Positions 1 to 56,296 of a stretch of 64,000 nucleotides of DNA are shown here, one piece after another. The stretch spans positions 41,222-105,221 of the forward strand of contig CAWFBZ010000013.1 of NCBI GenBank assembly GCA_963814135.1, read 5' to 3'. Position 1 is the first letter of the stretch. The number at the start of each line of letters is the position of its first letter. Under the pieces are notes generated by a model that was given only the letters and a program-made list of their open reading frames with translations, had not been told where the DNA came from and made no database searches. The position numbers and the translations under genes are program-made. The DNA comes from an uncultured Chloroflexia bacterium. GTDB taxonomy: Bacteria; Chloroflexota; Anaerolineae; Anaerolineales; Villigracilaceae.

Positions 1-956
1 ACGAAACGGTCGAGAACGTTATCGAAGAGTCCGAGAAGGCCATCTTCAACGTCAGCGAACGGCGTCTGAAGAAGGACCTCCAGCCGATCTCGTCCGTCCT
101 GAGCGATTATTACGACCGCATCGACGAACTCGCCAAACGTCCCGAGGACATCTTCGGCGTCCCGACCGGCTTCGTCGACCTGGACCGCATGCTGACCGGC
201 CTGCAACCTTCCGACCTGTTGATCATTGCCGGGCGACCTGGCCAGGGCAAATCCGGTTTCCTGCTGTCGGTGGCCAAGAACGCCGCCCTGCTGCATAAAA
301 AGCACGTCGCCATCTTTTCCCTGGAAATGTCCAACGAGCAGGTGGTGCAACGCCTGCTCTCACAGGAGACCGGCATCAACTCGCAGCGCTTGCGCAACGG
401 CAAACTCAACGATAACGAATGGCCGCTGTTGACCCACTCCATCGAAGTGCTGGGGGATACGCAAATCTTCCTGGACGACACGCCTGCCATCACTCCCCTG
501 GCCCTGCGCACCAAGTGCCGCCGCCTGCACATGGAATACGGTCTCGACCTGGTCATTCTGGACTATATCCAGTTGATGGGCGGGGATACCCGCAACGAGA
601 ACCGCGTCCAGGAAGTCTCCTATATTTCTCGCAACCTGAAGGTGCTGGCGCGTGAGTTGAACGTCCCGGTGCTGGCAGCCGCGCAGCTCAGCCGCGCCGT
701 CGAGCAACGCACCGACAAGCGCCCGGTGCTCTCCGATTTGCGTGAATCCGGCTCCATCGAGCAGGATGCCGATATCGTCATGTTCATCTATCGCCCCGAC
801 CAGTATGAGAAGGACACCGTCAAGCAGAACGTGGCCGAGATCATCATTGCCAAACACCGCAACGGGCCGACCGGCAGCGTCGAACTGGTCTTCATCAACC
901 ATCTGGCCAAGTTCGTGGATGCCGCCACACGCAACATCGACCTGAGCCAGGCCTAG
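1..956 (+). CDS. dnaB: Replicative DNA helicase DnaB, C-terminal ATPase domain; 5' end outside window
   Basis: Frame open from window edge (ETVENVIEESEKAIFNV...) into ORF 189..956; Walker A GRPGQGKSGF, Walker B DLVILDYIQLM, SGSIEQDADIVMFIYR, AKHRNGPTG. Confidence 0.95.
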   Translation, partial: ETVENVIEESEKAIFNVSERRLKKDLQPISSVLSDYYDRIDELAKRPEDIFGVPTGFVDLDRMLTGLQPSDLLIIAGRPGQGKSGFLLSVAKNAALLHKKHVAIFSLEMSNEQVVQRLLSQETGINSQRLRNGKLNDNEWPLLTHSIEVLGDTQIFLDDTPAITPLALRTKCRRLHMEYGLDLVILDYIQLMGGDTRNENRVQEVSYISRNLKVLARELNVPVLAAAQLSRAVEQRTDKRPVLSDLRESGSIEQDADIVMFIYRPDQYEKDTVKQNVAEIIIAKHRNGPTGSVELVFINHLAKFVDAATRNIDLSQA

Positions 957-999: not shown

Positions 1000-1673
1000 A
1001 TGAGCAAATTCCAAGGCTTCTCAGACTCTGAGACTTTCACCCCAATCCCCAACAATTTCTTCCGCCACCTGCTGACCGAAGTGGATGACCTGGACGAGTT
1101 GCGGGTGACGCTGTACGCCCTTTGGCGGATCGCGAACATGCCGGGAGGTGTCCATTATCTCAGGGAACAGGATTTTGCCGAGGGCTTTCCGGTTCATCCC
1201 GGGGCGAGCTTCCCGGGCAAAGCCTCGCTGCAGGGCTGGAAAAGGCGGTCGAACGCGGCAGCCTGATCCGGGTCGAAAATAACTCTGCCGTGCTCTTTTT
1301 TCTCAATTCCCCGCGCGGGCGGGCTGCCGCCGAAGCCTTCTCACAGGGCCGCTGGCAGCCGGATGCCGCCGGACCCGGTACCCCGCCGCCGGAACGCCCC
1401 AACATTTTCAAGTTGTACGAAGAGAACATGGGTCCCCTGACGCCGATGATTGCAGACGCACTGAAGGACGCCGAGAGTACCTATCCACCCGCCTGGGTGG
1501 CCGAAGCATTGGAGATTGCCGTACTGAAAAACAAGCGCAACTGGAAATACGTGGAAGCAATCCTGAAGCGCTGGAAGGAAGAAGGTCATGCCAAAAAGCA
1601 AGATAGACGCGACGCTCAAGCAGATGGTCGCCGGTACGCCGAAGGCGAGTACGCCGACTTCATCGAGCATTAA
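1000..1673 (+). CDS. DnaD-domain replication/primosome protein, split over two frames (apparent 1-nt indel about 1190-1250)
   Basis: ORFs 1000..1266 and 1122..1673 overlap in different frames and join into one protein; C-terminal NIFKLYEENMGPLTPMIADALKD...WVAEALEIAVLKNKRNWKYVEAILKRWKEEG is a DnaD/DnaB_2-type signature; sits between dnaB and a DnaC-like gene. Confidence 0.7.
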
Positions 1674-2970
1674 TTCGCTCGGCGACCCGGACTGCCCGCA
1701 CTGCCATGGCCTGGGATACGTTCGGCGAGACGCCGAGCCCGGTTCGCCCGACTTCGGCCGGCTGGAGATCTGCACCTGCCGCCAGGGTGCGGTCATGCGC
1801 CAGGTGCGCGACCGTCTCTTTTCGCTCAGCCACCTGGAGGAACTTACCGGTCTGACCTTCGATTCGTTTCAACCGCGCGGCCAGATTGGCCTGGGAGAGC
1901 GGCAGGCGGGCTCACTGGAGATCGCCTACAATAGCTCCCGTCAATACGCCGCCAACCTGAAGGGCTGGCTGCTCCTGCAGGGCAGTTACGGTTGTGGCAA
2001 AACCCACCTGGCCGCCGCCATTGCGAACTTTGCGGTTGACATGGGCGTGCCGACCCTTTTCCTGACCGTCCCCGATCTACTCGACCTGCTGCGCTTCGCC
2101 TTCGATGCCGAGAACATCACCTTCGAGCAGCGTTTCGAGCAGATCCGCACGGCCGATTTGTTGGTGCTGGATGATTTCGGCACGCAGTCGGCCACCCCCT
2201 GGGCGCAGGAAAAACTCTTCCAAATCGTGAACTACCGCTATATCAACCGTTTGCCACTCGTGGTAACCACCAACGTCCAGCTGGATGATATTGAAGAACG
2301 CATTCGCTCGCGCCTCCAGGATCCGGAATTGGTCAGCAAGGTCATTATCATTGCCCCCGATTACCGGCAGCCGTTGGACGACAAGGGCCACCACGAACTC
2401 TCTTCGCTTGACCTGCACGCCAACCGGACATTCGTGAACTTCGAGGGCCGGGAGGCGGAAGGTCTGCCGCCCGACGCGCTCAAGTCGCTGGAGAAGGCGC
2501 TCAAGGCCGCCACCACCTTTGCCGAAAAACCGCGCGGCTGGCTGGTGTTGGCCGGTCCGTACGGTTGCGGCAAGACCCATCTGGCCGCCGCCATCGCCAA
2601 TTTCCGCACCGATCTGGGCGATCCGCCGCTGTTTGTCACCGGCTCTGACCTGCTCGACCACTTACGCGCCACCTTCGATAAGAACAGCCCGGTTTCCTAC
2701 GACCGGCGTTTCGACGAATTTCGCACCAGCCCGGTGCTGATCCTGGACGACCTGAGCTCGCAATCCATCACCCCCTGGGTGCGCGAAAAACTTCACCAAT
2801 TGATCAATTATCGCTACAGCGCCGAACTGCCCACCGTCATAACCACTGCGGAAACTTTGGAAGAAATGGACGCGCGCATCCGTTCACGCATGCTGGATGC
2901 GCGTATCTGCACCATTTATGCCATTACCGTCCCGGCCTATCATGGCGGCAGGAAAAAAATCAGGCGTTAA
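1588..2970 (+). CDS. DnaC/DnaI-like AAA+ helicase loader with two tandem ATPase modules and N-terminal Cys4 motif
   Basis: 460-aa ORF; CPHCHGLGYV..CTCRQG zinc-like motif; Walker A twice (GSYGCGKTHLAAAIAN, GPYGCGKTHLAAAIAN), Walker B twice (LLVLDDFG, VLILDDLS), each followed by PW..EKL.Q..NYRY....P.V.TT; alternative ATG at 1624; overlaps the DnaD-like gene end. Confidence 0.8.
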   Translation: MPKSKIDATLKQMVAGTPKASTPTSSSINSLGDPDCPHCHGLGYVRRDAEPGSPDFGRLEICTCRQGAVMRQVRDRLFSLSHLEELTGLTFDSFQPRGQIGLGERQAGSLEIAYNSSRQYAANLKGWLLLQGSYGCGKTHLAAAIANFAVDMGVPTLFLTVPDLLDLLRFAFDAENITFEQRFEQIRTADLLVLDDFGTQSATPWAQEKLFQIVNYRYINRLPLVVTTNVQLDDIEERIRSRLQDPELVSKVIIIAPDYRQPLDDKGHHELSSLDLHANRTFVNFEGREAEGLPPDALKSLEKALKAATTFAEKPRGWLVLAGPYGCGKTHLAAAIANFRTDLGDPPLFVTGSDLLDHLRATFDKNSPVSYDRRFDEFRTSPVLILDDLSSQSITPWVREKLHQLINYRYSAELPTVITTAETLEEMDARIRSRMLDARICTIYAITVPAYHGGRKKIRR

Positions 2971-18066: not shown

Positions 18067-19198
18067 TCAGCCAAGGTGCATCGGCATGATGACGTGCAGG
18101 AAGTTATCATCCCCGACCGGCCGGACGACGCCCGGGGCATTGGATGCGGACGTCTCGAGCGCCACATTCGGCGTCTTGACCACTTCCAACACCTCCCGCA
18201 TGTACTTGACATTGAAGGCGATCAACAAACCCACACCTTCGATCGTGGCGGACACCACCGTCTCATTGGAGCCGGTCTCTTCAGACTGGGCTGAAATCTC
18301 AACCGCACCCGGCTCCAGGTCGCCGGCAGACTTTATATCGAGCCGGGCCACATTCGAACCTTCCCGGGCAAAAATCTCGGCCTGCTTGCAGGCTTTGAGA
18401 AGCGCCGGGGTGGAAAGGATGGTTCGGGATTTGTAGGAACGCGGGATGATCTGCTGGTAATCCGGGAAGGTACCATCAATCAACTGAGAGACCACTTCAA
18501 CTTCCTTCATGCGGAAAATGACCTGGCCGCGGCCTTTCGGCATGACCATGGAGATGGACTTCATTCCCATCCGAGGCAACCCGCGCCAACTCACCCAGGG
18601 CGCGTGCCGGGATGATGGCCGTGACAGGTTGGGGAACCGTCTGAGAGAGAGTGCCTTTGCGGACGGAGAGACGGAACCCATCCGCAGCAGCCATGGTGAT
18701 GGTATCGTTCTCCACGGTAACCAGTACTCCCATCAGGACCGGACGAGCCTCATCTGCGGATGCGGCAAAGACCACCTGGGAGATCATATCCTTGAAGTCG
18801 GCCACATTCAATTGGATCGCCCCCTCCATATCGGGAACCGGCAGGGGTGGGAACTCCTGGGCGTCGATGCATTTGATATCCGTGTTGGAAGCCCCGCAAT
18901 GCACATTCAAGCTCTGGGTGGCGGTGGCCAGGCTCAAGCTGACCTGTTCCTGCGGTAACGTCCCAATCAGGTCCACGAATGTGCGCGCCGGCACGGTGGT
19001 CGAGCCTTCTTCCTCGATCTTGGCACCGATCCAGCAGGTAATGCCCAGCTCCAGGTTGGTGGCCGACAGGCGCAGGCGCCCTTCATCGCTCGCCACCAGC
19101 ACATTGGATAATACCGGCAGGGTGCTGCGCGGCGAAACGGCGCGTGAAACAATGCTCAATCCATGCGCCAGGCTTTCCTGTAAGACGGTTACTTTCAT
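18067..19198 (-). CDS. dnaN: DNA polymerase III beta sliding clamp; one frameshift near 18560
   Basis: N-term MKVTVLQESLAHGLSIVSRAV..LSATNLELG (ORF 18497..19198) continues as ..SISMVMPKGRGQVIFRM..DGTFPDYQQIIP..FLHVIMPMHLG (ORF 18067..18681). Confidence 0.92.
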
Positions 19199-21585: not shown

Positions 21586-24288
21586 TTACAACTGCGCACG
21601 CAACTTTCCGGCCGTATCCCGGAAAGCCTCCAGGCGTTCGCGCTCTTTCTGGACGACCGGCGCCGGGGCTTTGTTGGCAAAGTCACTGGCCAGCAGTTTT
21701 TCCAGCCGGTCGATCTGAGCTTGGGTATCGGCCAGTTCCTTTTCCAGGCGTTTGCGCTCTTCCTCGGGATCCAGCATACCCGAGAGCGGCACATGGATCT
21801 CCACCGGACCGGCAACCAAAACCACGTCATTCTCAGGCTTTGCATCCAGGGATTCGAGGACATTGAATTGGGAACGGTCAAGACCAGCCAGGACGAGGAT
21901 GGTTTCAGCTTGTTCCCGAAGCAGGACTGTCTTTGCACCTCCGACCAGGCTGGCGGGAAGACGGCGGGACTGGCTGACTTTCTTCTCAGCCCGCAAGTTA
22001 CGGATGGAGCGAATGACGTCCTGCACCAGGGCAAAATCGGCCAGATTGGCGGCTTCCCAGCCTTCTTCGGCGTGGGCTTCGGGCCAGGCAGCCACGATGA
22101 GCGCATCCGGCCATCCGGCGGCGAGGCCGGCGAGGGGTGAATTCAACACTGCCTGGCGGAGATGCCCCCATAATTCCTCGGTCACAAAAGGCGTAAGGGG
22201 GTGCAGCAGCCGCAGGCAGGTATCCAGGACCCGCACGAGCGTGGTCACAGTCGACTGCCTTGACTCATCCTTCTGCATTTGCAGCTTGGATACTTCCACG
22301 TACCAGTCTGCAAAATCGTTCCAAAAGAATTCGTAGATCTGCCGGCCGGCTTCACCGTATTGGTAGGCCTGGAAAAGGCGTTCCACATCCCGCACGAGCG
22401 CATAAAGGCGCCCCCAGATCCACGAATCAGCCAGGGACCAGGACGGGGCAATATCCGCTGCAGGAAGAGCAGCACTGGCATAGGAATTTATGGCGGAGAT
22501 TACATAGCGACCGGCATTCCAGACCTTGTTGGCGAAGTTGCGGTTGCCTTCCACCTTCTTGATGCTGAGGTTGGTATCGTTGCCGGGGGTGGAACCCACC
22601 AGCAGGGTGAAACGCAGGGCATCCGTACCGAATTCCTCCATGACCGGGAGTGGGTCGATGCCGGTGCCTTTGCTCTTGGACATTTTCTGCCCATCCTCAT
22701 TGCGAACCAGGCCATGCAGGTAGACCGTACTGAATGGAACCTGACCGGTGAACTCGAGCCCATCCATGATCATACGGGCGACCCAGAAGAAAAGGATGTC
22801 GTAGCCGGTCTCCATCATGCTGGTCGGGTAGAAGTAACGGTAGTCGGGCGTTTCTTCCGGCCAGCCCAGTGTCGAAAACGGCCACAAACCCGACGAGAAC
22901 CAGGTATCCAGCACGTCCGGATCCTGGTGAATGTTGGCACTGCCACAATGGGCACAGGCCAGCGGGTCGGTGCGGGTGCAGGTCTTGCCGCCGCAATCCT
23001 CGCAGTACCAGACCGGGATGCGATGGCCCCACCACAACTGGCGGGAAATGCACCAATCGCGGATATTTTCCATCCAGTTGTAATAGACCTTCTCAAAGTG
23101 TTCCGGGATGATGCGGATGCGCCCATCCCGTACGGCCGCCTCGGCAGCCACGGCGAGCGGGGCAATCTTGACAAACCACTGCTCCGAGACCATCGGCTCG
23201 ATGATCTCCCCGCCGCGTTCCGAGCGCGGCACGTTGAGCAAGTAGGGTTCCTCCTTGATGACCAGACCTGCCAGGCGCATATCGGCCCAGAGTTTATTCC
23301 GGCACTCGAAGCGGTCCAGGCCGGCGTACGGACCGCCCAGCTCGGTCACCCTGGCCTCCCGATCCAGCATCGAGAGGACCGGCAGCCCGTGTCGTTGTCC
23401 GATCTCATAATCGTTGGGATCGTGGCCGGGCGTGATCTTGAGGGCGCCGGTGCCGAAATCCCGCGTGACATAATCATCGGCAATTACCGGAATTTCACGC
23501 CCCAGCATCGGCACGATCACATTCCTGCCGACGAATTTCTGGTAGCGCTCGTCCTGCGGATGGACGGCAACGGCCGTGTCGCCCAGGATGGTCTCCGGAC
23601 GGGTCGTGGCAACCGGGATGAATTCGGTTTCTGAATCCGCCAGCATGTATTTGAAATAATACAATTTCCCGGGTTCCTCGGAATACTCCACTTCCAGGTC
23701 AGACACGGCGGTTTTGAGACCGGGCGACCAGTTGATCAGGCGCGGGCCACGATAGATCAGGCCTTTCTCGTACAGGCGGACGAAGGCCTCCCGGACGGCC
23801 TTCGACAACCCATCGTCCAGGGTAAAGCGCTCGCGCTCCCAGTCGCAGGAGGCGCCGATCTTGCGGATCTGGCTGGTGATGATGCTGTGATATTTGACCT
23901 TCCAGGACCAGACCCGTTCGACGAACTGCTCACGCCCCAGTTCCTCGCGCGTCACCTCTTCGGTGCGCAGCAGATCTTTTTCCACCTGCATCTGGGTGGC
24001 AATGCCGGCGTGATCCGTTCCGGGTACCCACAAGGTCGGGATGCCCTTCATGCGGTGGTAGCGGATCATCAGGTCTTCCATCGCCACGAACATGACGTGC
24101 CCAAGGTGCAGCTCACCGGTTACATTGGGCGGCGGGATGGAAATGACGAAGGGTTTTTTGGAGGGATCAAAGCCCGGCTTGTTGGGGTCGTTCGAAGGTT
24201 TGAAATAGCCACCTTTCTCCCACATTTCGTAGATGCGCGGCTCGGTGGACTTGAAGTCGTAGGCTTTGGGGATTTGATACTCAGTCAT
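21586..24288 (-). CDS. valS: Valyl-tRNA synthetase
   Basis: Intact 900-aa ORF; HIGH-type motif PNVTGELHLGH, KMSKS (QKMSKSKG), C-terminal coiled coil; AAGGAG 8 nt upstream of ATG. Confidence 0.97.
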   Translation of the reverse strand: MTEYQIPKAYDFKSTEPRIYEMWEKGGYFKPSNDPNKPGFDPSKKPFVISIPPPNVTGELHLGHVMFVAMEDLMIRYHRMKGIPTLWVPGTDHAGIATQMQVEKDLLRTEEVTREELGREQFVERVWSWKVKYHSIITSQIRKIGASCDWERERFTLDDGLSKAVREAFVRLYEKGLIYRGPRLINWSPGLKTAVSDLEVEYSEEPGKLYYFKYMLADSETEFIPVATTRPETILGDTAVAVHPQDERYQKFVGRNVIVPMLGREIPVIADDYVTRDFGTGALKITPGHDPNDYEIGQRHGLPVLSMLDREARVTELGGPYAGLDRFECRNKLWADMRLAGLVIKEEPYLLNVPRSERGGEIIEPMVSEQWFVKIAPLAVAAEAAVRDGRIRIIPEHFEKVYYNWMENIRDWCISRQLWWGHRIPVWYCEDCGGKTCTRTDPLACAHCGSANIHQDPDVLDTWFSSGLWPFSTLGWPEETPDYRYFYPTSMMETGYDILFFWVARMIMDGLEFTGQVPFSTVYLHGLVRNEDGQKMSKSKGTGIDPLPVMEEFGTDALRFTLLVGSTPGNDTNLSIKKVEGNRNFANKVWNAGRYVISAINSYASAALPAADIAPSWSLADSWIWGRLYALVRDVERLFQAYQYGEAGRQIYEFFWNDFADWYVEVSKLQMQKDESRQSTVTTLVRVLDTCLRLLHPLTPFVTEELWGHLRQAVLNSPLAGLAAGWPDALIVAAWPEAHAEEGWEAANLADFALVQDVIRSIRNLRAEKKVSQSRRLPASLVGGAKTVLLREQAETILVLAGLDRSQFNVLESLDAKPENDVVLVAGPVEIHVPLSGMLDPEEERKRLEKELADTQAQIDRLEKLLASDFANKAPAPVVQKERERLEAFRDTAGKLRAQL

Positions 24289-26216: not shown

Positions 26217-26856
26217 ATGTACATTGCCATCGAAGGTGTCATCGGGGTGGGCAAGACCACCCTGGCGCACTTGCTCCAACCGGCATTCCAATCCGAACTT
26301 CTGCTCGAGGTCTTCGAGGAAAACCCTTTCCTGTCTGACTTTTACGGCGATCGCGAACGGTACGCCTTCCAGACCCAAATCTTCTTCCTGATTAAGCCGG
26401 TATCACCAGCAGCGGCGCGGGGTCATGGCGCTCCTGGAAGCCGGCAAGTCACTCATTTCCGACTACACATTTGCCAAGGATAGCCTGTTCGCGCGCATCA
26501 ACCTGCAAGGCGACGAACTGGAAATGTACAAGCGTGTTCATGAAGCGCTGGCCGAAAAAATCGCCATGCCGGACCTGCTGATCTACCTGAGCGCCGATAC
26601 CGACGTCCTGATGCAGCGCATTGCCTTGCGGGATCGTTCCTACGAACGCAACATCGAACGCAGCTACATCGAGGATCTCAACCAGGCCTATGAAGAATTC
26701 TTTTCCAGGCCATACGACGACACGCCGGTCTTGACCATCGATACAAACCCACTTGATTTCGTGCATTTCCCGGAACACCTCAGCCTGATCGAAAACCGCA
26801 TCCGCGAAGCACTCAACCTTTCGCCTTACCAGGCGGAACTCCCGCTCGACCAGTGA
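26217..26856 (+). CDS. Deoxynucleoside kinase (dAK/dGK/dCK family); frameshift near 26390
   Basis: MYIAIEGVIGVGKTT P-loop, ..ENPFLSDFYGDRERYAFQTQIFFL (ORF 26205..26483) continues LSRYHQQ..LISDYTFAKDSLFA..DLLIYL..RIALRDRSYE (ORF 26425..26856). Confidence 0.88.
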
Positions 26857-26863
26857 GAAACGC

Positions 26864-27859
26864 ATGCACCTTACGCAAGCAGACCTGATCCGAATTGCCA
26901 AAGAGACCACCGAGAAAAGCCTCCTGGCGGACCCGGGCCTGGTGGCGGCCTACCTGACCGGTTCACTGCGCTCGGACAACCCGTTCCTGGGGAATACCAC
27001 CGATATTGACCTCGTCTACGTCCATGCAGAAGAACCCGCCATCCACCGCGAAATAATCCCATTAACTCCCGAAATCCACCTGGATATCATCCATAACTCG
27101 CGCAAGCTTTACGAAAAGCCCAGGGAACTGCGCATCCACCCCTGGCTTGGACCGGAATTATACGATCCAATGCCGCTCTACGTCAGCAAGCACTTTTTCG
27201 AATTCATCCAGGCCGGCGTGCGCGATCGATACCATGAAACTTCCAACGTGCAGGCGCGTTCCCGCCGTTTGGAAGAGCAGGCCCGCCAGGTTTTGAACGG
27301 AATATCACCCAACCAATCCATCAGCCCAAGGCAATTCCTGGAATACTTGAAAACCATCCGGCTGGCCGCCAATGCACTCGCCATGCTGGTTGGCGAATTG
27401 CTGGTGGAGCGGCGTTTCCTGCTGCAATTCCCGCTGCGCGCCCAGGCAGCCGGACAGGCCGACCTGATCGGAGAATTATTTGCGCTGCTGGGAGTTAACC
27501 AGGTGGACACCCAAACCCTGGCCGGGTACGTATCCGAATGGGAAAAAGCCTTTATCGAAGCAGCCGCCCGCCCAAGGGTGGACCCCCGCATCGCAACCCC
27601 AAGGCTGGCATATTACAAACAGGCTTTCGAGGCCATGCTGGCCAGCGCAACTCCGCAGGCCATCCTGTGGCCCCTGCTGCTGACCTGGACGCAATCCGTG
27701 GAAGGCGCACCGGCTGGCGGACAGGCCAGCTGGCTCTCGGCCTGTGCCCAGCTGGGCCTGGACAAGGAACCGTTCGGAACCCGCCTGGAAGACCTGGAAC
27801 ATTTCCTCCTGGCGGTCGAGGCGGTCCAGGCAAGAATGGCAGTCGACTCTCCCGATTAA
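26864..27859 (+). CDS. Nucleotidyltransferase-fold (Pol-beta-like) domain protein, function unknown
   Basis: 331 aa; YLTGSLRSDNPFLGNTTDIDLVYV fits the GS-x(n)-DxD NTase pattern, followed by a helical domain; starts 8 nt after the kinase stop. Confidence 0.5.
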   Translation: MHLTQADLIRIAKETTEKSLLADPGLVAAYLTGSLRSDNPFLGNTTDIDLVYVHAEEPAIHREIIPLTPEIHLDIIHNSRKLYEKPRELRIHPWLGPELYDPMPLYVSKHFFEFIQAGVRDRYHETSNVQARSRRLEEQARQVLNGISPNQSISPRQFLEYLKTIRLAANALAMLVGELLVERRFLLQFPLRAQAAGQADLIGELFALLGVNQVDTQTLAGYVSEWEKAFIEAAARPRVDPRIATPRLAYYKQAFEAMLASATPQAILWPLLLTWTQSVEGAPAGGQASWLSACAQLGLDKEPFGTRLEDLEHFLLAVEAVQARMAVDSPD

Positions 27860-27860
27860 T

Positions 27861-27994
27861 CCCCCATATATGGGGTGACTTTTCAGGCCAAAGGCTGTCA
27901 AACTGTGGATAACTGCCCATAAACTGTGGATAAGCGGCTCGAACTGTGGAAAAGTCGCTCAATTGTTCGATTTTGGACCCCCATATATGGGGTG
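27861..27994 (+). repeat. Two copies of 17-bp CCCCCATATATGGGGTG (palindromic core CCCCATATATGGGG) flanking the first three DnaA boxes
   Basis: Exact copies at 27861-27877 and 27978-27994. Confidence 0.95.
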
Positions 27995-28250
27995 CAATTT
28001 CTTCGCCAACCAAAATCTGGATGGACTCTTGATTGAAAAAAAGTCCGTTAGGCTGGGCTCAGATGCACGCTCGAAAACACGCTTTTCTCTCCGAGAGTTT
28101 TCCACAGGTGTTGGAACCCCACTGGCGCAAATTACCCCACCCCTTGGCCCCAAACCAACCGGCCTCCCACCTGTGGGGCCAGACACCGGTTATCCACTTA
28201 TCCACAGGGCCTACTAAGACTACTGATATATACATCTAATAAATATATAT
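27861..28250. other. Candidate replication origin (oriC) or DnaA-box cluster with AT-rich unwinding tract
   Basis: TGTGGATAA at 27904-27912 and 27925-27933, TGTGGAAAA 27945-27953 (21/20-bp phasing); opposite orientation TTTTCCACA 28098-28106, TTATCCACT 28190-28198, TTATCCACA 28198-28206; then GGGCC and a very AT-rich 30-mer 28221-28250; no credible ORF in the roughly 400-bp gap. Confidence 0.55.
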
Positions 28251-28262
28251 GTGGAGGAAACC

Positions 28263-29451
28263 ATGCCGATCTTCCGCTTCGACGAACTGACCTGGCCTGA
28301 AATAGCCGGGCTGCCTCGGACCATCCCGCTGGTCCTGCCGGTTGGAAGTTACCCCGAGACTTTTCTTGCGGACGGGAAAGGAATGGAGACTCATACAGGG
28401 GCAGGCTGTGCTTTCATCCCAACTTGGAACGTCCCAACCGGTCGGAATTTTGCCGGCCATTCCCTTTGGATGGCCTGGCAGTGGATTGGCCGTCCCGGAG
28501 AAAATATTCCAGGCGATGCTGCGCAACCTGGTTGCCAACCTGCTGGAAGACGGATTCGGCAATATTCACGTGCTGGTACCACCGGACTTGCACCTGGACG
28601 ACGACATTCCGCAAATTAGCTGGGTGGGGGACAGCCCCGCAAAACTTACCTTTTCCCCTGCTGATGTCGAAAAGGTGCTGATCGCTCCGATCGGGCACAC
28701 CGAGCAGCATGGCTACCATTCCCCTTTGTCCACAGACACGCTGATCATCGAAGCCATCGGGGAAGGCACGGCCCGGGCTGTGCCGGATCAGGCAACCTGC
28801 CTGCCAGTCTTCCCCTACGGAGTCAGCACACACCGGCGTTCCTTCCCGGGCACCTTCAATGTTGGCGGGCGGGCCTTCGAGGATTTCTGGCTGGCGCTGG
28901 TGGACACGCTGGTGGCAGCCGGGTTCACCCGCTTTTACCTGATGAGCGGGCACGGCGGTAATTCGTCATTCCTGGTCAACGTGGTGAAATATGCCGGCGA
29001 GAAATATCCGCACATCTTCTGTGCGACCGCCTTTTTGTACCTTTCAGGGCCACAAGGGGTGGCTGCACTGGATGGCAGGCGCCAGTCAGCCCTGGGGGGA
29101 ATGGGTCACGCTTGCGAGTTGGAGACTTCGCTGGTGCTGCACTTGCGCCCGGAGTTGGTGCACATTGAAAGGGCGGTGGACGAGACAGATTTCATCACCA
29201 CCCCATCCTATTACATGGATTGGATCGAGGCGGGCGCTTTGACTGCCAATCCGCCCTGGGAAGACGACACCCGCACCGGGGCGTATGGAGCGGGCAGCCT
29301 TGGCACGGCAGAAAAGGGGGAATACTGGCTGAAAGCGGCGATCGAGGAAAAAGTGGGGCACGTGGCCGAGATCCACGAGCAATACCGCAGGAGAAGGGAA
29401 CGCAGGCAAGACGGGCGGTCGATAAAGGCTGGACTGAGCAGTCGGAATTAA
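28263..29451 (+). CDS. Creatininase-family amidohydrolase with an extra N-terminal creatininase-like half domain; frameshift at G4 run 28398-28401
   Basis: MPIFRFDELTWPEIAGLPRTIPLVLPVGS (ORF 28251..28619) joins ..QAVLSSQLG.. of ORF 28342..29451, which carries IGHTEQHGYHSPLSTD, SGHGGN, GHACELETS. Confidence 0.75.
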
Positions 29452-30548
29452 GTGCCGGCGCTGATGATCACGCGCTCCCCCAGCCCGGCCCAATCGAAAA
29501 GCCACTTTGCATCCGCGGGGGATAGATTGATGCAGCCGTGCGAGGTGGGGCTGCCAAAGGCATCGTGCCAATACGCCCCGTGAAACCCGAAGTCCCCAGC
29601 GTAGGTCATGAAGTACGGCACACCTTCGATGTAGTAATCGCTGGTGGACGTGGATGGGGGCGTGATGGAGCTGTATTCCACCTTATATAAAATGGCAAAA
29701 CGGCCCTCGAACGTCCAGGAGTTCTTGCCGGACGAGATCAAGGTGGCGAAGACCAGTTTGCAGTTGTTATACACCGACAGCGTCTGGGTTTTCAGGTTGG
29801 CGTAGATAAACCGGCAGGTGTCCGGGCCGGCTTCGGCCGGCACGGATGGGCTGACCAGCGCAAGTGCGCTCTCCGGAAGCCATTCGTCTGCTCCGATGGC
29901 GACGTATCCGGGCTTTTGGGCTGCCACCGGGACCTCATGGACCACCTGGTAGCGCTGGTAGGTCCGGACCGGCGCATCCTTCATATTGACGCTGTCAATC
30001 TCGGACAGGACCCACCCGAAGCGGAAATCAACCTGGCGGGTCAGCAGGATGCCGGTGAATTTGGAGGGCGTCAGCGGCTGCAGATCCTCCATGACCATCC
30101 AGCCATAGGTGGTGAGGGAGTAATCCTTTCCGTCGTCACCGGTCCGGGTGGTGGTGTAGGCTACGTAAGCGGGATAATCGGGCAGGTAGCCGAAATTACC
30201 GGTCTTGGCGAGGGCATCCTGGAAACTGGCATACACCCTGGCTTTGGGTTTGGTCACTTCGGCGTAATGATATTTCAGCACTCCCAAAGCCGGATCGATG
30301 GTCTGGTACCAGGCTGGTTCGGGGGTAGGCGTGAGGGTCGGTGTACTGGTGAGGGTGGCGGTGGGATTTGCCGTGGGAGTGGATGTGGGAGCAGATGTGG
30401 GAGTAGATGTGGGAACGGATGTAGGTGAAGGATGTGTAGAGGCCCCGCAAGCGGTAAGGATTAAAATGAAAAAGAGTGTTATGCCGTAGAAACGAGTGTA
30501 GTAACGACTTAAGTCGTTACTACGAATGGTAAACAAATTCTTAATCAT
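29448..30548 (-). CDS. L,D-transpeptidase (YkuD domain) lipoprotein with Thr/Pro-rich linker
   Basis: ATG 30548; ..ITLFFILILTACG lipobox; PTSTPTSAPTSTPT linker; C-terminal FHGAYWHDAFGSPTSHGCINL catalytic motif. Confidence 0.85.
   Translation of the reverse strand: MIKNLFTIRSNDLSRYYTRFYGITLFFILILTACGASTHPSPTSVPTSTPTSAPTSTPTANPTATLTSTPTLTPTPEPAWYQTIDPALGVLKYHYAEVTKPKARVYASFQDALAKTGNFGYLPDYPAYVAYTTTRTGDDGKDYSLTTYGWMVMEDLQPLTPSKFTGILLTRQVDFRFGWVLSEIDSVNMKDAPVRTYQRYQVVHEVPVAAQKPGYVAIGADEWLPESALALVSPSVPAEAGPDTCRFIYANLKTQTLSVYNNCKLVFATLISSGKNSWTFEGRFAILYKVEYSSITPPSTSTSDYYIEGVPYFMTYAGDFGFHGAYWHDAFGSPTSHGCINLSPADAKWLFDWAGLGERVIISAGT
30498..30523. repeat. REP element: perfect 26-bp palindrome GTAGTAACGACTTAAGTCGTTACTAC
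   Basis: Read directly; 18 nt downstream of the RAYT stop; lies inside codons 9-17 of the predicted L,D-transpeptidase. Confidence 0.9.
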
Positions 30549-30972
30549 CCCAACCTCGACCGAGGTCTGAAAGTGGGGGATTGGAGTTCCAATGATCTTG
30601 CCGTTTTTTTGTGAGGTCATCTTCCAGGTTCCAAAGACGGGAAGTCTTTCCATGAAGTGATTTTAGTGCAGATGATACAAAATCAAGCGATTCGACATCG
30701 ACCAATATGTGATAATGATTCATGAGTATGACCCAGGCAATGACATCTGCTTTGATAGTTTGGATTGCTTCCAGAAGTAGTAGCTCGAATTCAGTTCGCC
30801 TATTAGGAGATGCCATGACGGGCGCATGTTCAAAATTCGCCGCTGTAATCAGGTAAAAGCCTGCTTCCCGATATGGATGTGGTGGAGCGTGCAGAGGATA
30901 ACCATGTTCACGTCTGTAATGAACGATTTCTTCGCGTTCGCTGAATGTGAGTTTGAGATATTCGTAGGGCAT
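30541..30972 (-). pseudogene. REP-associated tyrosine transposase (RAYT, IS200/Y1 HUH family), apparently C-terminally truncated
   Basis: MPYEYLKLTFSEREEIVHYRREHGYPLHAPPHPYR.., HUH motif MNHYHILV, LHGKTSRLWN; no C-terminal Tyr motif before the stop; flanked by cognate REPs. Confidence 0.7.
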
Positions 30973-30987
30973 GTGCAACCCTGACTC

Positions 30988-31044
30988 GTAGTAACGACTT
31001 TAGTCGTTCCGTCCGGCACAAGCAACGACTGAGGTCGTTACTAC
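30988..31044. repeat. Inverted REP doublet of the same family
   Basis: GTAGTAACGACTTTAGTCGTT (30988-31008) and AACGACTGAGGTCGTTACTAC (31024-31044); 16 nt upstream of the RAYT ATG; the right copy overlaps the holB stop codon. Confidence 0.85.
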
Positions 31045-32051
31045 GACTTAGGCCAATCCAACAATAAGACTTCTATAAGCAGGCGCGGGTTGACGTTGCG
31101 TTCCAGTTTGTCGAGGGCGCCTTCGGCGCTTTCGACCAGGCGGCGGGCCTGGGGCAGCGAGAGTTGCCCGGCAAGCGCCTCGATCTCAGCAGTACGATCC
31201 ACGTTGGCGAGCAGCGAGGCTGGGTCAGACACGCTCAAAAAGACATCCCGCCAAAACGAAAGCCACTGCAGCAGCGTATCCCGCAGGCGTTCACGCGTCT
31301 CGGCTTTGCGATCGGTCAATTTCTCCGCAAAGGCGAATTGGTCCCGACGCCTGGACCGGAGCAGGTTCTGCAGGTCGTCCAGGCACTGTGCCCGGAATTT
31401 CAGGGCGGCCTTGTCATTAAGAAGATTCAGGGCAAAACCGGGGCGACCACCGGAAATGTGCGCCAGGAGATGGGCGGTCGGCTCATCTGCGCCGCGCGCT
31501 TTCAGGACGCTTTCCAGCTTCCCGACCGGCAACGGGCGCAGGCGCAGCACTTCGCAACGGGAAACGATGGTCGGAAGGAGTTGTTCGGGAGTATCGGCGG
31601 TCAGGAGCAGAAGGACGTGCGGCGGGGCTTCTTCCAGGGTCTTAAGCAGGGCGTTGGCCGCGTTGGCATTGGCTTCCTGAAAACGCAGGAAGAGCGCCAC
31701 GCGGTAGGAACCCTGGTAGGGCTTGAGCACCAGGCTCTGGCGCAAACTGCGGACCTGTTCCACCTTAAGCGTGCCGCCGGGTTTATCAGCCTGGACGATC
31801 GACAGGTCCGCATATTGCATCCGTTCGATCTGCTGGCAGGATCTGCAATTGCCGCAGGGTTCGGCCGGTCCGACCGGCTGCAAACAGTTCAAGGCCTGGG
31901 TCAGGCGCAATGCCAGGGTCCGGCGACCCAGGCCGGGCGACCCGCACAAAAGATAGGCGTTCCGCAGGGAATCGTGCGCCAGGTGCTGTTGGAGCATCTG
32001 CACGGCCCATTCATGCCCGATCAAGCCCCAGTTTTCCGTCATCTCCGGCAT
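31041..32051 (-). CDS. holB: DNA polymerase III delta-prime subunit
   Basis: 336 aa; GSPGLGRRTLA, zinc module CGNCRSCQQ, SRC motif TIVSRCEVLRL. Confidence 0.9.
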   Translation of the reverse strand: MPEMTENWGLIGHEWAVQMLQQHLAHDSLRNAYLLCGSPGLGRRTLALRLTQALNCLQPVGPAEPCGNCRSCQQIERMQYADLSIVQADKPGGTLKVEQVRSLRQSLVLKPYQGSYRVALFLRFQEANANAANALLKTLEEAPPHVLLLLTADTPEQLLPTIVSRCEVLRLRPLPVGKLESVLKARGADEPTAHLLAHISGGRPGFALNLLNDKAALKFRAQCLDDLQNLLRSRRRDQFAFAEKLTDRKAETRERLRDTLLQWLSFWRDVFLSVSDPASLLANVDRTAEIEALAGQLSLPQARRLVESAEGALDKLERNVNPRLLIEVLLLDWPKS

Positions 32052-32061
32052 CCCTGGTCCT

Positions 32062-32974
32062 TCATTCTTCCCCGGCTCTCAGCCGCAAATATGAATCATA
32101 GCGTTCCGGACTCACCGTACCGGCATCGACGGCGGCCCGTACCGCACAGCCGGGCTCGGTCTTGTGGTTGCAGTCGTTGAACTGGCAGTGTTGCACCAGC
32201 GGCGCCAGCTCGGGAAAATAACCATCCAGTTCTTCCGGTTCGGTATCCCAGAGCGCCAGGGAGCGCATCCCGGGTGTGTCGGCGACGTAACCTCCGTCCT
32301 CGAGCGGGAACAACTGTCGGACCGTGGTGGTATGCCGGCCTTTCTTGAATGCCGCGCTGATCTCGCGCACCGCCAGCCCCAGTCCGGGCTGGATGGCGTT
32401 CAGCAGGCTGGATTTACCCACGCCGCTTGGCCCGGCCAGGGCCGAGAGCTTGCCTTTCAATTGCTGGTGCAGTTCGTCCACCCCTTCGCCGGTCTTCGCA
32501 CAGGCGTAAATGACCGGGTAACCGAGCGGAACGTAAAAGCCAAACATTTCGACAGCCCGAGCGCGGCCCACCAGGTCGATCTTGTTGGCAACGATGATGG
32601 CGGGTAATTTCTGGCGTTCGGAGATGACCAGGTAGCGGTCGAGCATGCGCAGGTGTGGTTCCGGGCTGGCACAGGCGAAGACGAAAACCGCCTGGTCGGG
32701 ATTGGCCAGGATAACTTGCTGGTACACGCCCTGGGGACGCGGGTCGAGGCGCACCAGGGAATGGGAGCGCTCCTGAATGGCTTCGATGCTTCCCGAGCCC
32801 TCCGATTGGTAAGGAGACCTGCACCCGGTCTCCGATGGCGGCAATATCGCCGACGTGTTTGCCCTGTTTCAGGCGGCCGCGCAAATGACAGGTCAGTAGG
32901 CCGCGCTCGGTCTGGACGCTGAAAAAGCCCGATTGGGAGCGGATGATGAGACCAGGAATGTGTTCGGTCGGCAT
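32062..32974 (-). CDS. rsgA: Ribosome small-subunit-dependent GTPase A; frameshift near 32815
   Basis: OB-fold N-term GLIIRSQSGFFSVQTERG..GDRVQVS (ORF 32414..32980) joins YQSEGSGSIEAIQER..; permuted GTPase VANKIDLV, GPSGVGKSSLLN, DTPG; zinc knuckle CQFNDCNHKTEPGCAV. Confidence 0.9.
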
Positions 32975-35227
32975 TGCCAATGGATTACGGGTGTGGGGGT
33001 GGGCGTGACCGGGAGGCCGTAATCCGGGTTGATCACACCAAAGCTGGTTTCCCAGCCCGGGTAAACCGTCTGCGGCTTCCCGTTGAAGTAGATCTCCATG
33101 ACACGCCGGAAAATGGGTGCGGCCCAGATGGCGCCCTCGCCCTTGTTGTTGACCAGCACTGCCACAGCAATATCCGGTTTTTCAGCGCTGCCGTACATGC
33201 TGTAGCCTGCAAACCAGGCATGTGGATCGGTCGCGCCGCTTTCGGCGGTGCCGGTCTTGGCGGCGACGGGAACGGCATAGTTGCCCAGCTCGTAGTAGGC
33301 CGTGCCGCGCGGGTTGACCACCACCTGTCGCATGGCATCCTGGATAACCTTTAAATCGGCCGGTTTAACCGGCAGGGTGCCGGTGATCTGCGGGCTAAAA
33401 GAGAGCACCGCATCGCCGCCAACAGTTTGGACATTCTCAACCACCTGAGGGCGGTAAAGCGTGCCGCCATTGGCAACCGCGGCGATGAAGTCGGCCACCT
33501 GCAGAGGCGTGACCAGCACCTTGCCCTGGCCAATGGCAATGCTGGTGGCATCCAGACCATCGGTGGGATTGGGGATGGAGCCGGTGGCTTCGGCAACCTG
33601 ATCGATCCCGGTAGCCTTGCCGAGGCCGAAAGCCCTGGCCATGTTCGAGATATCGTCCTTGTGGACGCCGTCAGTCCTGGGTATAGAGCGTATACCCGAT
33701 ATGATAGAACCAGGGGTCGCACGAACGCATCAGCCCCTCGGGCAGGGTCAGCATGCCACTGGGCTGGCTCTTGGAGGCGGTGCAGGTATCGGTGCCGTTG
33801 GCGGCTTTTTCGTCCTGACAGTCCTGCCAGGTCCAGTCGTAGAGGGTATAACCGGGGACTTCCGTATAGGTATATTCGCAATCCAGGGTACTGGCAGGTG
33901 TGAAGATGCCACTCTCCAATGCGGCCGCCATTGTGACAATCTTGAAGACCGACCCGAGCGGATACTGGCCCTGGGTGGCCCGGTTGAAGGTCGGCTGGTT
34001 TGGATCATCCAGCATGGCTTGCAGGCTCCACTGGCGGTTGACGTTATTGGTGTCATACAGGTTGGGGTCGTACCCCGGCGAAGACACCATGGCAAGAACC
34101 CGTCCGGTATTGACTTCCATCACGACGATGGCGCCCGGCAGCCCGTCCATGGCATCCTGGACCTGTTTCTGAAAATTGCTGTCGATGGTCAGGGTGATCG
34201 TATCGGCCGGCTGGGAGTTCGACTGGCCCAGCACGTTATTGGGGTCGCCGTCCACGTAAAGGGAAGCGGCATCCCTGCCGTGCAAATAATCTTCACCCCA
34301 TTTCTCGATGCCTTCCACGCCGACGCGTTCCGTGCCATTGTAACCAAGCCGCTTGTAATAACTTAAATCTTCTGGCGAGATGTACAGGGTATAACCGACC
34401 GCGTGCGGTGCAATGTTGGGTTCATAAAATCGGGAGGTGTAGGGAGTGATCGATACGCCGGAAAAGGCTGCGATGAGGGAGTTGTTGACCGATTCCGCGC
34501 TGGCTTCACCGATCGGAACGTAATTCCCATCCGGGTAATTCTGGTATATATCCCGGATTGCGTTCGGGCGAACCCCGGTCAGCTTGAAAAGGGTATTCAC
34601 CACGGCATTTTCACTATCCGCTGAGACATTTCCGGCGATCAAGCCTAATGCATCTGCATCCGTCTGGGTGGCAATCGCATTGCCGTTGATGTCGTAAATA
34701 TCGCCACGGGCAGGCGGGATGTGTGCGGCAGCCAACTTCTTGCCACCTGCCAGCTCGGGCAGGATCATGCCATCATTCCACTCGATTTTCCAGGCGCCAT
34801 TTTCCAGGACAAGGTTGGTGGTAAAGTCGCGGCCGATGTCGCCGAAGAGGACGGTGTGATATATGAAGTGGAAAGCCATCTGGGCGGATTGCGGGTTGGT
34901 CAGGGACGAAAGGATGTTGTAGTCCATCCGGCTGACGCTCATGGTGTCGAGGGCGTTGGAGTAGCGCGTGCTGAAATCATCCAGGCTGATGGCGGCCTGA
35001 CTGGCACTGGTCAACTGGGCGTACATGCTGGCGTAATCTTGCGACACCTGCGCATCCAGGAAAGTGCGCATAACCGGCTCAGCACTCGGCACGGCGACGA
35101 CGGTAACCTGGGCAGTCGGCAGGGAGGTCGTTTTCGTGGGGACGGGTGCGAATATACTCCCTGGCCCCGAGCAGGCCGCCAGGAAAATGAACATCAATGG
35201 CAGGATCATCCATCGGACGAATTTCAT
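32893..35227 (-). CDS. Penicillin-binding protein 2-type D,D-transpeptidase with N-terminal NTF2-like domain; frameshift near 33672
   Basis: Signal/anchor MKFVRWMILPLMFIFLAAC; SxxK (GSVFKIVT), then ..YTQD*/DGVHKDDISNMARAFGLGK.. continues in ORF 32893..33642 with KTG (AKTGTAE); 3' end overlaps the rsgA start. Confidence 0.85.
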
Positions 35228-41664: not shown

Positions 41665-42624
41665 CTATTTCTTTTCGTTTTTTGGTAAATTTTGCTGGGC
41701 CAGCGAAATCATGCCGCTCAACCCGCCCAGGTTCATGGTATCAACCGCGCTGCTGGGGACGATCACCAGGGCACCTTTCTGCTTCAATCCCTCGAACAGC
41801 ATGTTCATGGCGCGCAGGTGCAGGGCGGTCGGATTGTCTATGTAAGCCTTGGAAGCCTCCGAGAAGGAAGCCGCGATCTGCTGCTCGGACTCGCCCAGGA
41901 TCACGCGCGCCTGGCGTTCGCGCTCGGCCTGCGCCTGTCGGGACATGGCATCTTCCAGGTCGGGCGGGATGATCACATCCCGGATCTCGACCGACTGGAC
42001 GGTGACGCCCCAGGGGGTAGTGCGCTCGTCGATGACCTTCTGCAATTCGGCGTCCATCTTGTCGCGCCCGACCAGGATATCGGCCAGCATGCTCTGCCCG
42101 ATGATTTCGCGCAGGGCGGTCTGGGCGGCCCAGGCGATGGCGGCCTTGTAATCGGCCACCTCCAGGGCGGCTTTTTCGGCGTCCCAGACCACCCAAAACA
42201 AAACCGCATCCACGTCCACCGGCACGGTATCCTTGGTGAGGGTCTTTTCGGCCGAAAAGGGCGTCACCATGACGCGGTGATCGATCCAGTTGGCCAGGTT
42301 ATCCACGATCGGGATCAGCCAGAAGGCGCCCGGCCCGGCCAGTTTGCGGAAATGGCCCAGGCGCAGGACAACGCCTTTTTCCCACTGGGAAGCGACTTTC
42401 AACGAAAAAAGGATGTAGACGCCGATCAACATCCAAAGGATCGCCCAATAAGTCGGCAAATTCTGGTTGGCAGGATATATGTTTGGAATGACCAGCGTGC
42501 CGCCGACACTGATCAGCATGCAGATGGCGAACAGGAATCCGGCGATGCCGGAAATATGCAGGTCAGGTTTCAGGTTCGTAAGCGAACGGGAATTTGGTTC
42601 TTTGGAATTACGGACAGGGGTCAT
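41665..42624 (-). CDS. SPFH/band-7 (stomatin/prohibitin-like) membrane protein
   Basis: 319 aa; N-terminal TM segments then ..VVLRLGHFRKLAGPGAFWLIPIVD..VDVDAVLFWVV.. and a coiled C-terminus ..AQAERERQARVILGESEQQIA.. Confidence 0.9.
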   Translation of the reverse strand: MTPVRNSKEPNSRSLTNLKPDLHISGIAGFLFAICMLISVGGTLVIPNIYPANQNLPTYWAILWMLIGVYILFSLKVASQWEKGVVLRLGHFRKLAGPGAFWLIPIVDNLANWIDHRVMVTPFSAEKTLTKDTVPVDVDAVLFWVVWDAEKAALEVADYKAAIAWAAQTALREIIGQSMLADILVGRDKMDAELQKVIDERTTPWGVTVQSVEIRDVIIPPDLEDAMSRQAQAERERQARVILGESEQQIAASFSEASKAYIDNPTALHLRAMNMLFEGLKQKGALVIVPSSAVDTMNLGGLSGMISLAQQNLPKNEKK

Positions 42625-56182: not shown

Positions 56183-56296
56183 GAATTGGCGCTAGTTTGC
56201 GCATTGTTTCACATCTCAGTACTACGGGGGTACTTGCATTCCATGGAATAAAAGGGAATAATTGTAATAAATGAGATAAATATAAGGAGAAACCCC

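Follow-up and report, generated by a model that had tools for sequence, protein, structure and literature searches.

The DNA under study is a stretch of 64,000 nucleotides from an uncultured Chloroflexota bacterium of the order Anaerolineales (GenBank assembly GCA_963814135.1, contig CAWFBZ010000013.1), hereafter the window, and our subject is the intergenic gap at positions 27860-28262, which carries a cluster of DnaA boxes and is a candidate replication origin (oriC). The gap comprises 403 bp between the stop codon of a gene for a 331-aa protein, at 27859, and the ATG of a creatininase-family gene, at 28263, which is preceded by a GGAGGA ribosome-binding site (28254-28259). With regard to DnaA boxes, both strands of the whole window were searched for TTATCCACA with at most one mismatch, with shuffled sequences as the control. 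Six matches were found in the gap, three on the minus strand (27904, 27925, and 27945) and three on the plus strand (28098, 28190, and 28198). They span 303 bp, a density above the usual criterion for oriC of at least three DnaA boxes at a mean spacing of less than 100 bp. The boxes and the elements to their right are as follows.

27904..27953, minus strand: left DnaA-box array of three boxes, 27904-27912 and 27925-27933 being perfect and 27945-27953 being TTTTCCACA
28098..28106, plus strand: middle DnaA box TTTTCCACA, which shares its orientation with the tandem pair near the unwinding site
28190..28206, plus strand: tandem DnaA boxes TTATCCAC and TTATCCACA, facing the unwinding site, with 1 and 0 mismatches
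28207..28210, plus strand: GC cluster GGGC, the 4-bp spacer from the boxes to the trios
28211..28228, minus strand: DnaA-trio run 3'-GAT GAT TCT GAT GAC TAT-5' on the bottom strand, running 3' to 5' away from the boxes
28220..28250, no strand: AT-rich DNA unwinding element (DUE), the lowest-stability tract

The window contains 18 boxes in total, compared with 9.0 ± 2.9 in the shuffles; the 12 outside the gap are all isolated, and no second DnaA-box cluster was found elsewhere in the 64 kb. The shuffle rate predicts 0.057 boxes for a stretch of 403 bp, against the six observed, which gives a Poisson probability of about 4e-11 for at least six boxes in 403 bp, or about 7e-9 after correction for 159 window positions. 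The start-to-start spacing of the left array is 21 and 20 bp, i.e. two helical turns, with the three boxes on one helical face. The tandem boxes at 28190 and 28198 share one base and are consequently in an 8-bp register. An earlier note on this DNA, made by reading the sequence, had described a gap of about 400 bp holding six boxes, the left ones phased at 20-21 bp and the last two abutting. The search returned exactly the same positions and orientations, and the size of the gap, the phasing, and the contact between the last two boxes agree with the values given above. Rfam and tRNA scans of the window gave no match, and the gap was accordingly rejected as a known RNA gene.

The right-hand part of the gap exhibits the elements of a basal unwinding system (BUS), arranged in the published order. 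In the published accounts (Richardson 2016/2019, Pelliciari 2021), DnaA-trios are described as 3'-[G/A]A[T/A]-5' triplets (consensus GAT) in at least three copies, with a GC cluster before them, on the strand running 3' to 5' away from the box. The polarity of the trios was set here from this published definition, and the PMC8287927 supplement prints the BUS as the trio strand. The top strand of the module reads TTATCCAC TTATCCACA GGGC CTA CTA AGA CTA CTG ATA, and its complement reads AATAGGTG AATAGGTGT CCCG GAT GAT TCT GAT GAC TAT. Five of the six trios have a central A, trio 3 (TCT) being the exception, and a run of at least three consecutive NAN trios is found in trios 4-6 only, 13 nt from the proximal box, with trio 3 as the interruption. 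The BUS definition allows up to two mismatches in a box oriented toward the trios and treats a second, tandem box as optional; the tandem pair has this orientation and at most one mismatch. Trio 1 lies 4 bp (GGGC) from the proximal box and 12 nt from the upstream box, within the BUS limit of 16 bp; a GC-rich gap of about 4 bp is typical of this spacer.

The order of box, GC cluster, trios and AT-rich tract had already been recognised in the earlier note and is real, but its details needed revision. The GC cluster is present as GGGC at 28207-28210 and not as GGGCC, and the trios that had been proposed, TAC TAA GAC TAC with a central A on the top strand, had been read on the wrong strand and in a frame shifted by one base. 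The conclusion drawn from them nevertheless survives the correction, and with the correct frame and strand the agreement with the published BUS is closer than the note had recognised. Opposite the trios, the top strand exhibits three TnnT motifs (T28212-T28215, T28221-T28224, and T28224-T28227) of the DnaD recognition element (DRE) type, the kind recognised by DnaD; two such motifs are enough for DnaD binding in Bacillus subtilis.

The AT-rich 30-mer at 28221-28250 had also been singled out before. It is 87% A+T and overlaps the least stable 30-mer of the 64 kb, which is 28220-28249 by nearest-neighbour energy; the least stable 50-mer is 28211-28260. The second least stable AT-rich stretch, at 56243-56292, has a single 1-mismatch box within 300 bp (55972) and is not origin-like. 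A pattern consisting of a box with at most one mismatch, 2-6 nt, and two [CT]T[AT] triplets matches the window once, at 28198. The same pattern gave 32 matches in 686 kb of related loci; all are confined to the origin region, and 30 coincide with the junction of the tandem boxes.

Conservation in relatives and occurrence in metagenomes

One genome per GTDB species was scanned with an alignment of the 331-aa protein, which gave 45 loci among relatives. The alignment of the gap comprises 43 sequences including the window, i.e. every locus reaching past the 331-aa gene. Across these relatives the identity of the flanking 331-aa protein is 44-71%. The three minus-strand boxes are present at the exact 21/20-bp spacing in 43/43 sequences, and plus-orientation boxes follow about 175-195 and 265-295 bp further on. 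Arrays, orientation, spacing, and trios are all kept in 43/43. The near-invariant stretches are AAACTGTGGATAACTGCCC..AACTGTGGATAA..(11)..CTGTGGAnAAGTCGCTCAATTGTTCGA and GGTTnTCCACTTATCCACA-nnnn-CTACTAnnAnTACTA, and the middle box is conserved as TTnTCCACAGG. The third base is fixed in every trio. The central bottom-strand A is found in 98-100% of the sequences in trios 1, 2, 4, and 5 and is absent from trio 3 in 86%, and the pattern GAT GAT nnT nAT GAT is itself conserved. The AT tract keeps its composition (mean 71% A+T) with a variable sequence. Strong purifying selection acts on these features of the gap throughout a clade of order rank.

About half of the loci have the creatininase-family gene as their right neighbour, and in others this gene is displaced by 4.5-7 kb; in the remaining loci it was not detected within the fetched flank. 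As the module is retained whatever its right neighbour, it is not a regulatory appendage of the creatininase-family gene. In the 43 loci, box 1 and the last box are separated by distances that cluster around 264, 275, 283, and 293-298 bp, i.e. in steps of about 10 bp, or roughly one helical turn. This periodicity gives a Rayleigh R of 0.52 at a period of 10.5-11 bp, uncorrected for shared ancestry, which hints at helical phasing between the two arrays.

The gap contains further elements, between and around the boxes.

27862..27875, no strand: perfect 14-bp palindrome CCCCATATATGGGG, copy 1, three bases past the stop codon of the upstream gene
27954..27970, plus strand: conserved block GTCGCTCAATTGTTCGA, directly after box 3, with near-maximal information content in the 43-sequence alignment
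27979..27992, no strand: perfect 14-bp palindrome CCCCATATATGGGG, copy 2, right of the left box array
28008..28022, plus strand: conserved block with the consensus ATCCAAAATCTGGAT in the 43-sequence alignment, a 5-bp inverted repeat

The two copies of CCCCATATATGGGG are 117 bp apart and bracket the three phased DnaA boxes. Copy 1 is at a fixed -43 from box 1, with its sequence kept in 13 of 42 relatives, and copy 2 is at a fixed +75/76, with its sequence kept in 22 of 42. Outside these two fixed positions there are 6 matches in 733 kb. A simple terminator scan labels copy 1 as terminator-like. The palindromes were rejected as strong terminators, their hairpin energies being ordinary; they could be a terminator or a protein-binding site.

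As a gene-independent control, metagenome contigs were scanned for TGTGGATAA-N12-TGTGGATAA-N11-CTGTGGA, and at least 120 matches were obtained. Among the matches listed, about a dozen contigs from unrelated lineages have a dnaA that ends 200-370 bp left of the triple-box array. In the same contigs, plus-orientation boxes and a box-spacer-trio-AT module are found 166-186 bp rightward, followed by dnaN. Further contigs among the matches listed have the module upstream of dnaN alone, e.g. L148 with TTATCCACATTTTCCACAGCCCCTACTACTACTATTAATAA. In L077 and L141, such an array is found about 67 nt past the end of a distant homologue of the 331-aa gene (29-34% identity). Since this layout is found between dnaA and dnaN in other contigs, the architecture sits at canonical origin positions elsewhere. 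The metagenome dnaA-dnaN origins (e.g. L058, L093, L110, L134, L144, and L148) resemble the gap in having three phased minus-strand boxes, plus-strand boxes, and the box-spacer-trio-AT module. In contrast to the gap, which lies between the nucleotidyltransferase-like and creatininase-family genes, they have dnaA as left neighbour and dnaN as right neighbour, and the distance between the two arrays is about 100 bp longer in the gap.

Gene neighbourhood and compositional skew

The genes in the window that bear on the locus, or lie close to it, are the following.

1-956, plus strand: dnaB, which runs off the left window edge
1122-1673, plus strand: DnaD-domain gene
1588-2970, plus strand: DnaI/DnaC/IstB-type AAA+ gene, 460 aa, with two P-loop regions
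18067-19198, minus strand: dnaN, 8.7 kb from the gap
21586-24288, minus strand: valS
26425-26856, plus strand: deoxynucleoside kinase gene
26864-27859, plus strand: 331-aa gene, nucleotidyltransferase-like, the left flank of the gap
28263-29451, plus strand: creatininase-family gene, the right flank of the gap, with an N-terminal extension and frameshifted in the assembly
29448-30653, minus strand: YkuD transpeptidase gene
31041-32051, minus strand: holB
right of holB, minus strand: rsgA, a penicillin-binding protein (PBP) gene (32893-35227), and maf

The genes dnaB, dnaD-like, dnaI-like, dnaN, and holB are all located within the same 64 kb as the gap. The first three (1-2970) form a replication-initiation cluster about 25 kb from the candidate origin, which suggests that this Chloroflexota genome has a set of helicase-loading genes similar to that of Firmicutes. 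A tblastn search with E. coli DnaA found no dnaA in the 64-kb window, and the same search found none within 10 kb on either side of the site in the 45 related loci. In the control metagenome loci the same query gave dnaA at 31-73% identity. Around the site, the dnaA-free span in the window covers no less than 28 kb on the left side and 36 kb on the right. Adjacency to dnaA or dnaN, a frequent but not defining trait of oriC, is lacking at the gap, and the box search of the window (at most one mismatch) found no DnaA boxes upstream of dnaN. That dnaA is missing from the window and that dnaN lies some 9 kb away had both been stated in the earlier note, correctly on these data.

With regard to gene orientation, the genes to the left had been described as almost all on the minus strand, as expected on that side of an origin. 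This is mostly so, with the exception of plus-strand stretches at 1-3.9, 12.9-15.7, and 25.8-27.9 kb. The argument itself has no force, since on the right of the gap the genes of the first 16 kb are minus-strand as well, and an orientation switch was rejected as evidence for an origin. In a published table, seen in part, an unlabelled column that we read as the fraction of leading-strand genes gives 0.51-0.53 for three Chloroflexi.

The 331-aa protein matched no Pfam or NCBIfam family. Its AlphaFold model (predicted local distance difference test, pLDDT, 74) exhibits a small beta-sheet N-terminal domain and a helical bundle, and it gave weak matches only, which are nucleotidyltransferase-like (3c18, ANT(4')). 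It has more than 1,400 homologues, the named ones being from metagenome-assembled genomes (MAGs) of Anaerolineales. The gene is syntenic with the candidate origin: in relatives it always ends 45-100 bp, occasionally up to about 200 bp, ahead of the first box. A link between this gene and replication was sought, and none could be shown. In the creatininase-family protein, the N-terminal extension of about 130 aa (28263-28650) resembles a degenerate creatininase N-terminus (FDELTWPEI..LP...PLVLPVGS ... IPFGWPGSGL), a similarity that suggests a partial internal duplication. The dnaN, creatininase-family, and PBP genes are each split into two overlapping or adjacent open reading frames (ORFs) in the window. 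Their orthologues in relatives are intact (dnaN 376 aa, the creatininase-family gene continuous in L025, and PBP 746 aa), and the split ORFs are probably long-read assembly indel errors, not pseudogenes.

An oriC is expected where the compositional asymmetry of the strands switches, at the minimum of the chromosome's cumulative GC skew. Compositional skew was analysed in the 64-kb window and in 21-kb loci of relatives, 25 of which have full flanks. For the window, the cumulative G-C curve is lowest at 28857, and in only 2% of block shuffles (500-bp blocks) does the minimum come within 1 kb of the site. The G+T (keto) skew per bp is -0.030 in the left arm versus +0.005 in the right (block-shuffle P 0.001). 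In matched 10-kb flanks, the right-minus-left GC skew is positive in 23 of the 25 relatives; over whole flanks the difference is positive in 22/25 for GC skew and in 24/25 for keto skew. When minus-strand genes only are considered, the difference in GC skew at third codon positions (GC3) is +0.069 and is positive in 26/30. The skew is only weakly supportive, with a polarity that is compatible with an origin and no localisation of the switch point.

Comparison with known origins

The closest known layout is the incC BUS of B. subtilis oriC, which comprises boxes #6/#7, a GC cluster, trios, and an AT-rich 27-mer. In both, tandem boxes in an 8-bp register point toward the unwinding site, the pair at 28190-28206 corresponding to #6/#7, and are followed by a 4-bp GC cluster, with 12 nt from the upstream box to trio 1. 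In both, the trios open with 3'-GAT GAT on the bottom strand, the AT-rich tract follows directly, and extra upstream boxes occur in either orientation. The PMC8287927 supplement prints the B. subtilis BUS as AATAGGTGT TTAGGTGT CCGG GATGATAATGAAGATGAT, where CCGG is the complement of the GC cluster GGCC. The gap differs from B. subtilis in several respects. It does not lie between dnaA and dnaN, its third trio is systematically degenerate at the centre, its left array has three boxes at 21/20 bp and about 275-295 bp away, it contains lineage-specific palindromes and conserved blocks, and it is known from sequence alone. By its layout, the module is assigned to the BUS class, and the sole apparent deviation from that class, the degenerate third trio, is itself conserved.

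The oriC of E. coli is unlinked from dnaA, its R1 box is followed by GGGC toward the DUE, and its distal boxes are oppositely oriented. The gap is similar in each of these points: it is dnaA-unlinked, a TTATCCACA box like R1 and GGGC face the DUE, and the distal boxes have the opposite orientation. In contrast, the gap has neither 13-mer repeats nor clustered GATC sites, and its tandem boxes and clear GAT-trio run are not evident in E. coli. E. coli datA and the DnaA-box clusters (DBCs) of B. subtilis resemble the gap in that several high-affinity boxes occur in a short intergenic stretch away from dnaA. As far as we are aware, datA and the DBCs do not have an oriented unit of tandem boxes, GC cluster, trios, and DUE, whereas the gap has one.

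A search of the accessible literature found no paper on replication origins in Chloroflexota. DoriC entry ORI94030346, for Anaerolinea thermophila UNI-1, belongs to the same order, and both it and the gap are predicted origins; however, its sequence is different and its BUS is weak. As used in PMC8287927, the entry falls at 420-460 of the record; its box has two mismatches, its spacer is the longest allowed (16 nt), and its score is 7. Its string is absent from all fetched loci, including the 12-kb L025, a MAG labelled A. thermophila that carries the module described here. The UNI-1 string was accordingly rejected as a counterpart of the gap module. In eight rows of Chloroflexi origin predictions in the supplement, UNI-1 included, the unwinding modules are all weak, with BUS scores of 4-10, compared with 25 for B. 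subtilis.

Identity of the locus

Based on the box cluster, the unwinding module with its DUE, their conservation whatever the downstream gene, the same architecture at dnaA-dnaN positions elsewhere, the polarity of the skew and the replication genes in the neighbourhood, we consider it probable that the gap at 27860-28262 is the oriC of this Anaerolineales bacterium. The anatomy of the sequence, its statistical excess of boxes, its conservation and its agreement with the published BUS layout are shown here; we infer that DnaA binds the gap, that the DNA unwinds there, and that the gap is the sole origin. DnaA would occupy the three same-face left boxes, the middle box, and the tandem pair at 28190-28206. 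A DnaA-ATP oligomer could then grow from the tandem pair over the 4-bp GC spacer to the trios of the bottom strand (3'-GAT GAT nnT nAT GAT-5') and stretch the trio strand, so that the adjacent AT-rich tract at 28220-28250 would open. The replicative helicase (DnaB) would subsequently be loaded, possibly by a Firmicute-like route. Such a route is plausible at the gap, given the TnnT motifs and the presence in the window of genes for DnaB, for a protein with a DnaD domain, and for a loader of the DnaI/DnaC type.

Several observations weigh against this assignment. Trio 3 violates the strict rule of the published BUS finder, which requires at least three consecutive NAN trios. The 331-aa gene was itself used to fetch the loci, and the linkage to it is in part a consequence of that choice. 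There is no switch of gene orientation at the site, and the skew of the window is weak and erratic, with no sustained V shape over 64 kb. A GC3 change-point fit is flat and does not select 28 kb; it relies on crude ORF picking with some errors. A local G-C minimum lies within 1 kb of the site in only 7 of the 25 relatives (0.8 expected), and the skew counts across relatives are not independent, as the same orthologous genes are reused. The cumulative T-A and keto minima are at about 41.3 kb. No DnaA-box cluster was found near that position, the nearest single box being at 42299, and these minima are probably a local composition effect of minus-strand ABC-transporter genes at 36-41 kb.

A different explanation is that the cluster is a non-origin site that titrates DnaA or is regulated by it (similar to datA or DARS, to a DBC, or to the promoter of the downstream gene), the real oriC being elsewhere, for example beside dnaA. 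The gap is indeed not adjacent to dnaA, a ribosome-binding site and start codon lie within 13 nt of the AT tract, the skew within the window is not decisive, and DoriC places the oriC of A. thermophila UNI-1 at the record start, in a different sequence (PMC8287927 supplement). We nevertheless regard this explanation as unlikely. The gap carries tandem boxes, GC spacer, trios, and DUE in strict unwinding polarity, and we know of no titration site or DnaA-regulated promoter with such an oriented unit. A non-origin cluster would be without an oriented unwinding module and tied to the downstream gene or to titration, and this is not what is seen in the gap. The module is kept where another gene has taken the downstream place or where the downstream gene lies 4-7 kb farther off, and the DoriC candidate of UNI-1 has a near-noise BUS, with a score of 7 versus 25 for B. 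subtilis in PMC8287927.

The gap might also be one of two origin-like loci, i.e. half of a bipartite origin, a second oriC, or a recently retired origin, with a partner cluster beside dnaA. Bipartite and dual origins are documented in other bacteria. This arrangement appears improbable here, since box-array region and unwinding module are both present and the gap is complete on its own, and conservation despite the divergence of the flanking protein to 44-71% identity speaks against a relic in decay. That box-like words came together by chance in the AT-rich region of a promoter has a negligible probability. Boxes with one mismatch are common as single words, 12 of them lying elsewhere in the window, but the cluster has a P of about 4e-11, and the conservation data refute chance, the boxes, spacing, and trios being invariant in 43 genomes.

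If the gap is oriC, a broader proposal can be made, which we put forward tentatively and with more doubt than confidence. The true origin of Anaerolineales, and possibly of a wider part of the Chloroflexota, may be this dnaA-unlinked locus linked to the nucleotidyltransferase gene, and not the dnaA-proximal sites in databases. It would combine a Firmicute-like DnaA-BUS with DnaD-domain/DnaI-type loading, a 'skipped' third trio, and helically phased arrays about 275 bp apart, and CCCCATATATGGGG would be bound by an origin regulator.

The position remote from dnaA has a precedent, E. coli being the classic case, and no new mechanism is revealed. A well-conserved, textbook-grade BUS at a locus other than that of the database predictions has corrective value for the annotation of Chloroflexota origins, and it gives a large lineage of environmental and wastewater bacteria a concrete origin that can be tested. 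Growth-rate estimates derived from peak-to-trough coverage for these MAGs would improve, and the locus adds to the evidence for an ancestral BUS.

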